64,000 nt of DNA. Source: Escherichia coli O157:H7. GTDB taxonomy: Bacteria > Pseudomonadota > Gammaproteobacteria > Enterobacterales > Enterobacteriaceae. Within the stretch, counting starts at the first letter, position 1. Each line of letters begins with the position of its first letter. A model generated the notes under the pieces. That model ran no database searches. It was not told the DNA's origin and was given only the letters and a program-made list of their open reading frames with translations. The stretch lies in NCBI RefSeq assembly GCF_013167455.1, contig NZ_CP038328.1, one strand, 5' to 3'. This document shows positions 3,233-7,420 of this stretch, one piece after another. Position numbers and translations under genes: made by a program.

Positions 3233-4888
3233 ATGACTAATCTTCCCCACTGGTGGCAAAACGGCGTTATCTACCAGATTTATCCAAAGAGTTTTCAGGA
3301 CACCACGGGTAGCGGCACCGGCGATTTACGTGGCGTTATCCAACGCCTGGACTATCTGCATAAACTGGGCGTTGATGCCATCTGGCTAACCCCCTTTTAT
3401 GTCTCTCCGCAGGTCGATAACGGTTACGATGTAGCGAACTATACGGCGATTGATCCCACCTACGGCACGCTGGACGATTTTGACGAACTGGTGACGCAGG
3501 CAAAATCGCGCGGGATTCGTATCATTCTCGATATGGTGTTTAACCATACCTCTACCCAACATGCCTGGTTTCGCGAGGCGCTGAACAAAGAAAGCCCTTA
3601 CCGCCAGTTTTATATCTGGCGCGATGGCGAACCAGAAACGCCACCGAACAACTGGCGTTCAAAATTTGGCGGTAGTGCGTGGCGCTGGCATGCGGAAAGC
3701 GAACAGTACTATTTGCATCTCTTTGCACCAGAACAGGCGGATCTCAACTGGGAGAATCCAGCGGTACGCGCAGAGCTGAAAAAAGTCTGTGAGTTCTGGG
3801 CCGATCGTGGGGTCGACGGGTTGCGCCTGGATGTGGTGAATCTGATCTCCAAAGACCCGCGTTTCCCTGATGACCTGGATGGCGACGGGCGTCGCTTCTA
3901 CACCGACGGGCCACGAGCACACGAGTTTTTGCACGAGATGAACCGCGATGTGTTTACGCCACGCGGGTTAATGACCGTAGGTGAAATGTCCTCCACCAGC
4001 CTTGAGCATTGCCAGCGATACGCGGCACTGACAGGCAGTGAATTGTCGATGACCTTTAATTTTCATCACCTGAAGGTCGATTATCCCGGTGGTGAAAAAT
4101 GGACGCTGGCTAAACCTGACTTTGTGGCGTTGAAAACATTGTTCCGCCACTGGCAACAAGGAATGCACAACGTAGCATTGAATGCCTTGTTCTGGTGTAA
4201 CCACGATCAGCCGCGCATTGTTTCTCGCTTTGGTGATGAAGGTGAATACCGCGTGCCTGCGGCAAAAATGCTGGCGATGGTGCTGCATGGCATGCAGGGA
4301 ACGCCGTATATCTACCAGGGCGAAGAGATTGGCATGACCAACCCGCATTTCACGCGCATTACTGACTATCGCGACGTAGAGAGCCTCAATATGTTTGCCG
4401 AGCTGCGCAACGATGGGCGTGATGCCGACGAGTTATTGGCAATCCTCGCCAGTAAATCCCGTGACAACAGCCGCACGCCCATGCAATGGAGCAACGGCGA
4501 TAATGCCGGGTTTACGGCTGGCGAACCGTGGATTGGCCTGGGCGATAACTATCAACAAATCAACGTAGAAGCCGCGCTGGCCGATGAGTCCTCGGTGTTT
4601 TACACCTACCAAAAGTTAATCGCACTGCGTAAGCAGGAAGCCATCCTGACATGGGGCAATTACCAGGATCTGCTGCCAAACAGCCCTGTATTGTGGTGCT
4701 ATCGCCGTGAATGGAAGGGGCAAACCTTGCTGGTCATTGCCAACCTTAGCCGTGAGATCCAACCCTGGCAGCCAGGGCAAATGCGCGGCAACTGGCAGCT
4801 TGTGATGCATAACTACGAAGAAGCCTCACCACAACCCTGTGCCATGACTTTACGGCCTTTTGAGGCTGTCTGGTGGTTACAGAAGTAA
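3233..4888 (+). CDS. treC: trehalose-6-phosphate hydrolase, 551 aa (GH13)
   Basis: ORF-track 3086..4888 starts at an upstream TTG; the real start is the ATG giving MTNLPHWWQNGVIYQIYPKSF; alpha-amylase family motifs present. Confidence 0.95.
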   Translation: MTNLPHWWQNGVIYQIYPKSFQDTTGSGTGDLRGVIQRLDYLHKLGVDAIWLTPFYVSPQVDNGYDVANYTAIDPTYGTLDDFDELVTQAKSRGIRIILDMVFNHTSTQHAWFREALNKESPYRQFYIWRDGEPETPPNNWRSKFGGSAWRWHAESEQYYLHLFAPEQADLNWENPAVRAELKKVCEFWADRGVDGLRLDVVNLISKDPRFPDDLDGDGRRFYTDGPRAHEFLHEMNRDVFTPRGLMTVGEMSSTSLEHCQRYAALTGSELSMTFNFHHLKVDYPGGEKWTLAKPDFVALKTLFRHWQQGMHNVALNALFWCNHDQPRIVSRFGDEGEYRVPAAKMLAMVLHGMQGTPYIYQGEEIGMTNPHFTRITDYRDVESLNMFAELRNDGRDADELLAILASKSRDNSRTPMQWSNGDNAGFTAGEPWIGLGDNYQQINVEAALADESSVFYTYQKLIALRKQEAILTWGNYQDLLPNSPVLWCYRREWKGQTLLVIANLSREIQPWQPGQMRGNWQLVMHNYEEASPQPCAMTLRPFEAVWWLQK

Positions 4889-4900
4889 ATCTTCCCTAAG

Positions 4901-4934
4901 CCCCGGTAATGCCGGTCATTCCGGGGTTTTGTCT
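4901..4934 (+). terminator. rho-independent terminator after treC
   Basis: GC-rich hairpin CCCCGGTAATGCCGGTCATTCCGGGG followed by TTTTGTCTG. Confidence 0.6.
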
Positions 4935-5049
4935 GTCAGCATGTTGTTTTTGTTGATTTTTCAACCAGCAAATTCATTAAAAAATTTACATAACGCTGTA
5001 GCGCCCGTCATCCGTACGCTCTGCTTTTTACTTTGAGCTACATCAAAAA

Positions 5050-5130
5050 AAGTTCAAACATCCTTGATGCAAAGCACTATATATAGACTTTAAAATGCGT
5101 CCCAACCCAATATGTTGTATCAATCGACTA
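5050..5130 (+). promoter_or_regulatory. nrdDG promoter region: NrdR-box-like AT palindromes and FNR-like TTGAT half sites
   Basis: CACTATATATAG at ~5075-5086 and CAATATGTTGTAT at ~5108-5120; TTGATgcaa at ~5064-5072; assignment by resemblance to consensus only. Confidence 0.4.
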
Positions 5131-5169
5131 TAATTGCTACTACAGCTCCCCACGAAAAAGGTGCGGCGT

Positions 5170-5255
5170 TGTGGATAAGCGGATGGCGATTGCGGAAAGC
5201 ACCGGAAAACGAAACGAAAAAACCGGAAAACGCCTTTCCCAATTTCTGTGGATAA
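5170..5255 (-). promoter_or_regulatory. two consensus DnaA-box 9-mers (TTATCCACA on reverse strand) in the nrdD 5' region
   Basis: Plus strand shows TGTGGATAA at ~5170-5178 and again at ~5247-5255, same orientation, the second ~27 nt upstream of the nrdD ATG. Confidence 0.4.
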
Positions 5256-5281
5256 CCTGTTCTTAAAAATATGGAGCGATC

Positions 5282-7420
5282 ATGACACCGCATGTGATGA
5301 AACGAGACGGCTGCAAAGTGCCGTTTAAATCAGAGCGCATCAAAGAAGCGATTCTGCGTGCAGCTAAAGCAGCGGAAGTCGATGATGCCGATTATTGCGC
5401 CACTGTTGCTGCAGTTGTCAGCGAGCAGATGCAGGGCCGCAACCAGGTGGATATCAATGAGATCCAGACCGCTGTTGAAAACCAGCTGATGTCAGGTCCA
5501 TACAAACAACTGGCTCGTGCTTACATCGAGTACCGTCACGATCGCGACATTGAACGTGAAAAACGCGGTCGCCTGAATCAGGAGATCCGTGGTCTGGTCG
5601 AGCAGACCAACGCCTCGTTACTCAACGAAAACGCCAACAAAGACAGCAAGGTGATTCCAACCCAGCGCGACCTGCTGGCCGGGATCGTGGCTAAACACTA
5701 TGCACGTCAGCACCTGCTGCCGCGTGACGTGGTGCAGGCACATGAGCGTGGCGATATTCACTATCACGATCTCGATTACTCACCGTTTTTCCCGATGTTC
5801 AACTGCATGTTGATCGACCTGAAAGGCATGCTGACCCAGGGCTTTAAGATGGGGAACGCCGAGATTGAACCGCCGAAGTCGATCTCTACGGCAACCGCGG
5901 TAACTGCGCAGATTATTGCTCAGGTTGCCAGCCATATTTATGGCGGCACCACCATTAACCGTATCGATGAAGTGCTGGCACCGTTTGTCACCGCCAGCTA
6001 CAACAAACATCGCAAGACCGCAGAAGAGTGGAACATCCCGGACGCCGAAGGCTACGCTAACTCTCGTACCATTAAAGAGTGCTACGATGCCTTCCAGTCG
6101 CTGGAGTACGAAGTAAACACCCTGCACACCGCCAACGGTCAGACGCCGTTTGTAACCTTTGGTTTTGGTCTGGGCACCAGCTGGGAGTCGCGCCTGATTC
6201 AGGAATCTATCCTGCGTAACCGTATCGCAGGCCTCGGTAAAAACCGTAAAACTGCGGTGTTCCCGAAACTGGTGTTTGCGATTCGCGATGGTCTGAACCA
6301 TAAAAAAGGCGATCCGAACTACGACATCAAACAGCTGGCGCTGGAGTGCGCAAGCAAGCGCATGTATCCGGATATCCTGAACTACGATCAGGTAGTGAAA
6401 GTCACCGGTTCGTTTAAAACCCCGATGGGCTGCCGCAGCTTCCTCGGCGTGTGGGAAAATGAAAACGGCGAGCAGATCCACGATGGTCGTAACAACCTCG
6501 GCGTGATCAGCCTGAACCTGCCGCGTATTGCTCTGGAAGCAAAAGGCGATGAAGCCACCTTCTGGAAGCTGCTGGATGAACGTCTGGTGCTGGCACGTAA
6601 GGCTCTGATGACCCGTATCGCTCGTCTCGAAGGCGTGAAAGCGCGCGTGGCCCCGATCCTCTATATGGAAGGTGCTTGTGGCGTGCGTCTCAATGCTGAC
6701 GATGATATTTCTGAAATCTTCAAAAACGGTCGTGCGTCTATTTCGCTGGGTTACATCGGCATCCACGAAACCATTAACGCGCTGTTCGGCGGCGAACATG
6801 TTTACGACAACGAGCAGCTCCGCGCGAAAGGTATCGCCATTGTTGAACGTCTGCGTCAGGCAGTGGATCAGTGGAAAGAAGAAACGGGTTATGGTTTCAG
6901 TCTCTACAGCACGCCGAGTGAAAACCTGTGCGACCGCTTCTGCCGTCTCGATACTGCTGAGTTTGGCGTGGTGCCGGGCGTGACCGATAAAGGTTACTAC
7001 ACCAACAGTTTCCACCTCGATGTGGAGAAGAAGGTGAACCCGTACGACAAGATCGACTTTGAAGCGCCTTACCCGCCGCTGGCGAACGGTGGTTTCATTT
7101 GCTACGGCGAGTATCCAAACATTCAGCACAACCTGAAGGCGCTGGAAGATGTCTGGGATTACAGCTATCAGCATGTACCGTATTACGGCACCAATACACC
7201 GATTGATGAGTGCTACGAGTGTGGCTTTACCGGTGAGTTCGAGTGCACCAGCAAAGGCTTCACCTGCCCGAAATGTGGTAACCATGACGCCTCCCGTGTG
7301 TCGGTAACTCGCCGCGTGTGCGGATATTTAGGTAGCCCGGATGCACGTCCGTTTAACGCCGGCAAGCAGGAAGAAGTTAAGCGCCGCGTTAAACATTTGG
7401 GAAATGGGCAGATAGGTTGA
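5282..7420 (+). CDS. nrdD: anaerobic ribonucleoside-triphosphate reductase (class III), 712 aa
   Basis: Full ORF; N-terminal ATP-cone, C-terminal zinc ribbon (CYECGF...CPKCG) and glycyl-radical motif (RVCGYLG). Confidence 0.97.
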   Translation: MTPHVMKRDGCKVPFKSERIKEAILRAAKAAEVDDADYCATVAAVVSEQMQGRNQVDINEIQTAVENQLMSGPYKQLARAYIEYRHDRDIEREKRGRLNQEIRGLVEQTNASLLNENANKDSKVIPTQRDLLAGIVAKHYARQHLLPRDVVQAHERGDIHYHDLDYSPFFPMFNCMLIDLKGMLTQGFKMGNAEIEPPKSISTATAVTAQIIAQVASHIYGGTTINRIDEVLAPFVTASYNKHRKTAEEWNIPDAEGYANSRTIKECYDAFQSLEYEVNTLHTANGQTPFVTFGFGLGTSWESRLIQESILRNRIAGLGKNRKTAVFPKLVFAIRDGLNHKKGDPNYDIKQLALECASKRMYPDILNYDQVVKVTGSFKTPMGCRSFLGVWENENGEQIHDGRNNLGVISLNLPRIALEAKGDEATFWKLLDERLVLARKALMTRIARLEGVKARVAPILYMEGACGVRLNADDDISEIFKNGRASISLGYIGIHETINALFGGEHVYDNEQLRAKGIAIVERLRQAVDQWKEETGYGFSLYSTPSENLCDRFCRLDTAEFGVVPGVTDKGYYTNSFHLDVEKKVNPYDKIDFEAPYPPLANGGFICYGEYPNIQHNLKALEDVWDYSYQHVPYYGTNTPIDECYECGFTGEFECTSKGFTCPKCGNHDASRVSVTRRVCGYLGSPDARPFNAGKQEEVKRRVKHLGNGQIG

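Follow-up and report, generated by a model that had tools for sequence, protein, structure and literature searches.

Conserved DnaA boxes upstream of nrdD in Escherichia coli and other Enterobacterales

The treC–nrdD spacer

The window, the whole 64,000 nt stretch of Escherichia coli O157:H7 DNA that was analysed, contains the E. coli treC–nrdD locus, in which the treC ORF runs to 4888 and nrdD begins at 5282, leaving a spacer of 393 bp. The 421 bases around the DnaA boxes described here are 100% identical to an O157:H7 chromosome, where treC and nrdD are annotated, and have a match in 5425 of 5426 complete E. coli genomes. The nrdD coding sequence, for the anaerobic ribonucleoside-triphosphate reductase, runs from 5282 to 7420 on the plus strand, as seen from the ORF and from the RefSeq annotation of identical E. 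coli DNA, and has a Shine-Dalgarno sequence, GGAG, at 5273–5276 on the same strand.

There are two FNR sites in the nrdDG promoter, centred at -33.5 and -64.5 (PMC10425943). From the positions published there, FNR site 1, TTGATGCAAAGCAC, is at 5064–5077 (plus strand, centred on 5070.5) in a conserved block, and from the positions and the oligonucleotide FNR site 2, TTGAGCTACATCAA, is at 5033–5046 (plus strand, centred on 5039.5). The NrdR-binding 57-mer of Rozman Grinberg and colleagues (PMC12176259) is the same as window positions 5070–5126 except for one base; NrdR box 1 is at 5074–5089 and NrdR box 2 at 5105–5120, both on the plus strand and in conserved blocks, with the -10 hexamer TAAAAT between them at 5091–5096. 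The FNR centres at 5070.5 and 5039.5 would place the nrdDG transcription start at about A5104, for a leader of 178 nt with the ATG at +179.

There is also a perfect -10-like hexamer, TATAAT, at 5129–5134 (+26 to +31), which is conserved across genera in the form CTAYAAT or CTATTAT and has no matching -35. Such a hexamer might serve as a sigma-70 pause element or as a second promoter.

A sequence-only reading of this DNA had reported two perfect DnaA boxes of the same orientation about 77 bp apart before nrdD, the second about 27 nt from the start codon. Indeed, exact matches to the 9 bp consensus of the high-affinity DnaA box, TTATCCACA, are present at 5170–5178 (the distal box) and 5247–5255 (the proximal box), both on the minus strand, with its reverse complement TGTGGATAA on the plus strand. 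The boxes are in direct orientation with 77 bp from start to start, and 26 nt separate the end of the proximal box from the ATG at 5282. With a start near 5104, both boxes would be inside the transcribed leader, at about +67 to +75 and +144 to +152, a placement where RNA polymerase at this gene can be affected. No promoter-like site was found downstream of the boxes in a consensus scan.

The proximal box has a weak partner, TTAAGAACA (6/9, at 5258–5266 on the minus strand), 2 bp away and in the same orientation, making this site a "double DnaA box", that is, two boxes of the same orientation 2 or 3 bp apart. In E. coli the distal box stands alone, its best neighbours at 2–3 bp spacing in the window matching the consensus at 4/9 and 2/9, which is the level of chance.

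No other perfect copy of the consensus is present in the 64 kb window. Shuffled windows have a mean of 0.34 perfect boxes, and variants with one mismatch number 14 in the window against 11.9 expected, which is chance level; the signal is therefore in the clustering of the two perfect boxes. From the 32 consensus DnaA boxes in the E. coli genome (Stringer, Fitzgerald and Wade, Microbiology 2024, PMC11317965), about 0.02 pairs no more than 100 bp apart would be expected genome-wide.

DnaA binding at nrdD and conservation of the boxes

In a DnaA ChIP-seq study of strain MG1655, nrdD is one of 16 bound regions, at 62-fold over control, and its Table 1 assigns the double box tTTAAGAACAggTTATCCACAg to the nrdD peak (PMC11317965). 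This sequence is present in the window at 5246–5267 on the minus strand, with the proximal box as its consensus half. Strain K-12 carries the same two boxes (NC_000913.3 4462687–95 and 4462764–72), and its leader differs from the window at three positions only, none of them in a box. The peak coordinate, 4462739, corresponds to about 5203 in the window, between the boxes; it fits the boxes only in NC_000913.3 numbering, while the table footnote of PMC11317965 says NC_000913.2. A look at DnaA ChIP-seq data had been suggested as a check on the boxes, and this published peak provides it; we are highly confident that DnaA binds at the nrdD leader. Two sites 77 bp apart are not separable at the resolution of ChIP-seq, and it is from conservation that we infer that the lone distal box would be occupied as well, and thus both boxes rather than one.

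Earlier predictions of DnaA sites in front of nrdD, by Messer and Weigel (1997) and Torrents et al. (2007), are cited in PMC11317965, according to which these sites were undemonstrated before and DnaA probably regulates nrdD and nrdG. The gene has already been counted in the DnaA regulon (PMC12371093; bioRxiv 10.64898/2026.05.06.723188), and is not mentioned in a 2021 review of DnaA and transcription. The proposal in the sequence-only reading of an unrecognised link between DnaA and anaerobic dNTP supply therefore holds for the link, which has the binding and the conservation of the boxes behind it, and fails for "unrecognised", given the predictions of 1997 and 2007 and the ChIP-seq of 2024. 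The finding of DnaA boxes at nrdD is correct but already known. What is added here is modest: the placement of the boxes in the leader, their conservation across the order in two architectures, the invariance of the lone distal box, and the possibility of a helix or terminator in the leader. The literature searched describes neither this placement nor the two architectures nor the helix, and contains no direct test of regulation.

Like the double boxes of purH, polA, and DARS2 (PMC11317965), the proximal nrdD site has two boxes of the same orientation 2 bp apart, one of them perfect. The nrdD partner, at 6/9, is weaker than those of purH or polA (7/9 and 8/9), and nrdD differs in having a second, lone perfect box 77 bp away, which is absent from the table in that study.

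Species-representative genomes were scanned with the first 200 residues of NrdD, giving 80 Enterobacterales loci. The Enterobacteriaceae set is made up of the window and 55 of these loci (56 sequences), with 52 sequences in the alignment. Both boxes are perfect, in the same orientation, and 77–79 bp apart in 50 of the 56, and in these 50 the proximal box starts 29–40 nt before the ATG. Column identity in the alignment is 99.8% in the boxes, but falls to 59% between them and to 50% over the 34 nt that precede the distal box, showing that both are conserved above the surrounding non-coding background. In the same alignment, the FNR-1 site and the -10 hexamer of the promoter stand out as further conserved blocks, together with the NrdR boxes, and at the gene start so do the Shine-Dalgarno sequence and the region of the start codon. 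Among the matches listed for the 5425 E. coli genomes, the most divergent, at 91.5% identity, has kept both boxes.

Conservation in the 52-sequence alignment extends past the proximal box as the block TGTGGATAACCT. In keeping with the double-box rule, 42 of 50 species have a partner for the proximal box, a 5–7/9 match at 2 bp spacing, where random sequence would give one in about 10%. A partner for the distal box, TAATCCCCA (6–7/9, 2 bp spacing), is seen only in the Cedecea/Buttiauxella group (L032, L036–L039, L041, L043, and L044), which makes the distal site a double box in these species. Many lone consensus boxes are not bound by DnaA (PMC11317965). The invariance of the lone distal box is notable, since the same study argues that lone boxes are usually unbound; a lone consensus box that is invariant across dozens of genera bears on this recent claim that DnaA needs paired boxes in vivo.

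The boxes are lost or degraded in L047 and L048 (Pseudescherichia-like, with a leader deletion) and in L046, L050, L067, L070, L077, and L078. These lineages are natural knock-outs for comparative expression work. They include a Klebsiella-labelled species (L050), Sodalis (L070), Rouxiella (L077), and Acerihabitans (L078).

Chance occurrence of both 9-mers has in its favour that two perfect copies are reached somewhere in the window in 5 of 100 shuffles, and then not side by side. Against this are the 77 bp spacing, when so few such pairs are expected in a whole genome, the invariance of the boxes across genera while the neighbouring bases vary, and the binding of this region in vivo (PMC11317965). 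Conservation and the ChIP-seq data rule out chance, to which we give a negligible likelihood, and the judgement of the sequence-only reading that two copies are unlikely to be accidental is borne out. The two nrdD boxes are real and strongly conserved, and almost certainly functional.

In the other families of the order (loci L055–L080) the nrdD leader has a different layout, found in Edwardsiella, Hafnia, Yersinia, Serratia, Pectobacterium, Brenneria, and Dickeya. Here a strong double box, TTATCCACA-nnn-TCATCCACA, is followed by a short GC-rich hairpin and then by an inverted perfect box, TGTGGATAA, as at L063:1411–1486 and L068:1411–1486. By alignment with E. coli, the double box occupies about +18 to +38, immediately next to NrdR box 2. 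The DnaA sites have therefore stayed in the nrdD leader across the Enterobacterales despite being rebuilt in number, orientation, and spacing, which argues for a function at this gene in particular over general titration.

The reading in which the boxes are mainly titration or reservoir sites for DnaA, with no gene-specific effect on nrdDG, does have points in its favour. Consensus boxes bind DnaA-ATP and DnaA-ADP alike, and the 62-fold ChIP-seq signal is strong. It has also been suggested that the boxes of regulon promoters may serve titration as well (PMC12371093). A pure titration site, however, would have no reason to stay at one gene, and the nrdD leader sites, kept across the order, hold a fixed place with respect to the NrdR box or the start codon. 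Like datA, DARS1, and DARS2, the nrdD leader has a cluster of consensus boxes outside oriC that gives a strong DnaA ChIP signal. The DARS loci have closely spaced, oppositely oriented boxes I and II with a box III, and datA has several boxes around an IHF site. At nrdD just two strong boxes are present, 77 bp apart as direct repeats, and the sites are tied to the nrdD leader across species. There is no exact match near the boxes to the IHF consensus WATCAANNNNTTR; a single match with one mismatch, at 5118–5130, is at the frequency expected by chance for the window. The missing IHF consensus and the wrong box layout rule out a datA- or DARS-like locus and also count against titration, which we consider improbable as the main function of the boxes. 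Nothing suggests a role for them in DnaA-ATP/ADP cycling.

Possible structure in the leader RNA

Between the boxes, on the plus strand at 5189–5243, there is a possible leader helix in which ATTG (5189–5192) and GGAAAG (5194–5199) would pair with CTTTCC (5234–5239) and CAAT (5240–5243) around a variable loop of about 34 nt, the helix ending 3 nt before the proximal box. Pairing of the purine-rich GGGAAG (GGAAAG in E. coli) with the pyrimidine-rich CTTCCC (CTTTCC) recurs in single-sequence and subgroup folds. When the sequences are aligned under a covariance model, pairing is seen in 81% of cells, against 35–66% in slid controls, 11 of the 12 pairs have compensatory changes, the covariation score reaches 0.31 against 0.06–0.14, and G-U pairs outnumber A-C by 57 to 33, these figures coming from an alignment that was fitted to the structure and so leans towards it. 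Because the covariation is clear only on this structure-fitted alignment, the helix is rated as suggestive, and not proven.

Other measures of folding are weak. RNAalifold gives no consensus structure on a plain MAFFT alignment of 50 inter-box regions, and the mean z-score of the inter-box minimum free energy is -0.89 for the sense strand and -0.57 for the antisense (-0.35 for the window sequence). When the purine-rich 5' arm was set against the pyrimidine-rich 3' arm in a duplex test, the mean z-score relative to shuffles was -0.77, also weak, and the antisense did as well. The fold of the whole leader, with z = -1.46, is not unusual, and no relevant Rfam match (E ≤ 1) is present in 4500–5800 of the window or in seven related loci.

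The short direct repeat noticed earlier between the boxes is real and longer than had been claimed, being 17 nt (GAAAGCACCGGAAAACG at 5195–5211 and GAAAAAACCGGAAAACG at 5216–5232, plus strand) with 88% identity, a period of 21 bp, and an exact core, ACCGGAAAACG, at 5201–5211 and 5222–5232. It is located in the loop of the possible helix, within an A-rich stretch. Only E. coli and E. albertii have the repeat; it is absent from all other genera, where there is unrelated sequence of the same total length, as well as from L002, a divergent leader labelled E. coli. This limited distribution rules out the ACCGGAAAACG repeat as a conserved operator; judged by its distribution, it is a lineage-specific rewrite and not a conserved element. 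A possible leader peptide, seen by eye in Citrobacter, was set aside because E. coli does not conserve it.

In the second architecture, the inner hairpin, specified by hand, has 83.5% of cells paired against 27–47% in slid controls, with compensatory changes at three pairs and U-G pairs on the sense strand. It is followed by a T-run in Brenneria and Pectobacterium, where a scan calls it terminator-like (L063 1435–1458, L068 1436–1457). RNAalifold, on the set from outside the Enterobacteriaceae, picks up only the invariant pairing from box to box. The inverted boxes of these leaders could pair with each other in the RNA.

Given these features, it might be proposed that the conserved element works at the level of RNA, where UGUGGAUAA in the leader transcript would, with the helix, be a structure or a protein site (an "rDnaA box") for attenuation, stability, or translation, binding to DNA being secondary. 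Both boxes would be transcribed, the helix has some support from covariation and from its G-U pairs, and the inverted boxes of Yersinia, Serratia, and Pectobacterium can pair and flank a terminator-like hairpin. At the his leader, binding of DnaA to RNA has been proposed (PMC10989985), the "rDnaA box" idea being speculative; that paper found no DnaA–RNA binding in vitro. The conserved 9-mer is, however, exactly the DNA consensus and DnaA is on the nrdD DNA in vivo. Furthermore, the E. coli copies, as direct repeats, cannot pair with each other, and the weak folding scores, the lack of an RNAalifold consensus, and the lack of an Rfam match argue the same way. An element acting at the RNA level is highly improbable, less probable even than titration.

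Possible effects of DnaA on nrdDG expression

The explanation that we consider likely is that there are two genuine high-affinity DnaA operator sites in the nrdDG leader, at which the effect of DnaA would most probably be negative. A regulatory role of some kind for DnaA at nrdDG is very likely, while repression specifically is favoured only slightly. Repression is put forward because the boxes are downstream of the start, because the double box is beside NrdR box 2 in the other families, and because of published roadblocks and the proteomics of NrdD.

The promoter is activated by FNR and repressed by NrdR, and RNA polymerase starting at about 5104 would have to pass DnaA at +67 to +75, on the lone consensus box, and again at +144 to +163, where the consensus box and the weak partner 2 bp away would probably hold a DnaA dimer. 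DnaA bound in the leader may hinder elongation as a roadblock, or promote premature release. Synthesis of the class III ribonucleotide reductase would rise when free or active DnaA falls and would drop when DnaA is abundant, which would tie the anaerobic dNTP supply to the replication-initiation cycle, as described for nrdAB.

For nrdAB, the DnaA boxes reportedly lie at or upstream of the promoter and are said to have been tested both genetically and biochemically (Augustin 1994; Olliver 2010). The nrdD boxes differ in being in the transcribed leader (+67 and +144), as two separate sites 77 bp apart. The likeness is otherwise close, nrdAB (class Ia) being a ribonucleotide reductase operon with a consensus box, TTATCCACA, and a weaker partner, gTTATCCACAaagTTATGCACTt, 2–3 bp away, bound in the same ChIP-seq (14-fold) and with NrdR boxes in its promoter also (PMC11317965, PMC12176259). 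If DnaA controls both the aerobic nrdAB and the anaerobic nrdDG, dNTP supply would be tied to replication initiation whatever the oxygen level, an idea that has already been published.

The mechanism proposed for the nrdD boxes is the same as for DnaA bound within the transcription unit in the asnC terminator region, guaB, and datA box 2, where it impedes RNA polymerase (Schaefer and Messer 1988, 1989, as cited in later work). Of these roadblock sites, that of guaB is not bound in the ChIP-seq, whereas nrdD is (PMC11317965). The nrdD boxes have TTATCCACA on the template strand. Roadblocking by DnaA is reported to depend on the orientation of the box (Schaefer and Messer 1989), and the template-strand orientation may be the less effective one; a text search of the literature for this orientation rule gave no match.

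In the literature searched there is no direct test of box mutations or of DnaA dosage on nrdD transcription, and the expression evidence is proteomic. NrdD protein is increased in DARS2-deleted and triple-deletion strains, described as lowering the DnaA-ATP fraction (PMC12371093), and NrdD and NrdG are up 3.6–8-fold at very low DnaAcos (bioRxiv 10.64898/2026.05.06.723188). Both proteins are also up on DnaAcos induction, which the authors of that preprint attribute to hyper-replication stress, and in PMC12371093 the DnaA regulon is concluded to respond little to shifts in the DnaA-ATP fraction or in titration. Derepression through NrdR could be an alternative source of all of these proteomic changes.

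The increase on DnaAcos induction would also be expected if DnaA activated nrdDG, or acted as a dose-dependent switch as proposed for nrdAB, giving more anaerobic dNTP at high initiation potential; indeed, positive regulation of nrdA and polA by DnaA has been described (PMC11317965). Both boxes are, however, well downstream of the start, which is unusual for classical activation, and the double box of the other families, at about +18 to +38 and directly after NrdR box 2, is in a typical repressor position. That NrdD is up also at very low DnaA and in DARS2-deleted cells does not fit either, and activation is considered unlikely, though less so than titration.

The preferred reading, repression from within the leader, might be taken further. 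The nrdDG leader would then be a DnaA-operated checkpoint after the transcription start, where the DnaA sites and an RNA helix together decide whether polymerase passes on to nrdD. The helix ending just before the proximal box would fit such a checkpoint, as would the terminator-like hairpin and T-run in Pectobacterium, Brenneria, Serratia, and Yersinia, and the module would have been kept in two architectures, as direct boxes 77–79 bp apart in the Enterobacteriaceae and as a double box at NrdR box 2 with an inverted box elsewhere. This extension is tentative, and we hold it to be doubtful.

Two further observations concern the end of the leader. There is a Dam site, GATC, directly before the nrdD start codon (window 5278–5287). 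Identity within the block ATCATGACA is 98% or higher across 52 species, beyond what a spacer between the Shine-Dalgarno sequence and the ATG calls for.
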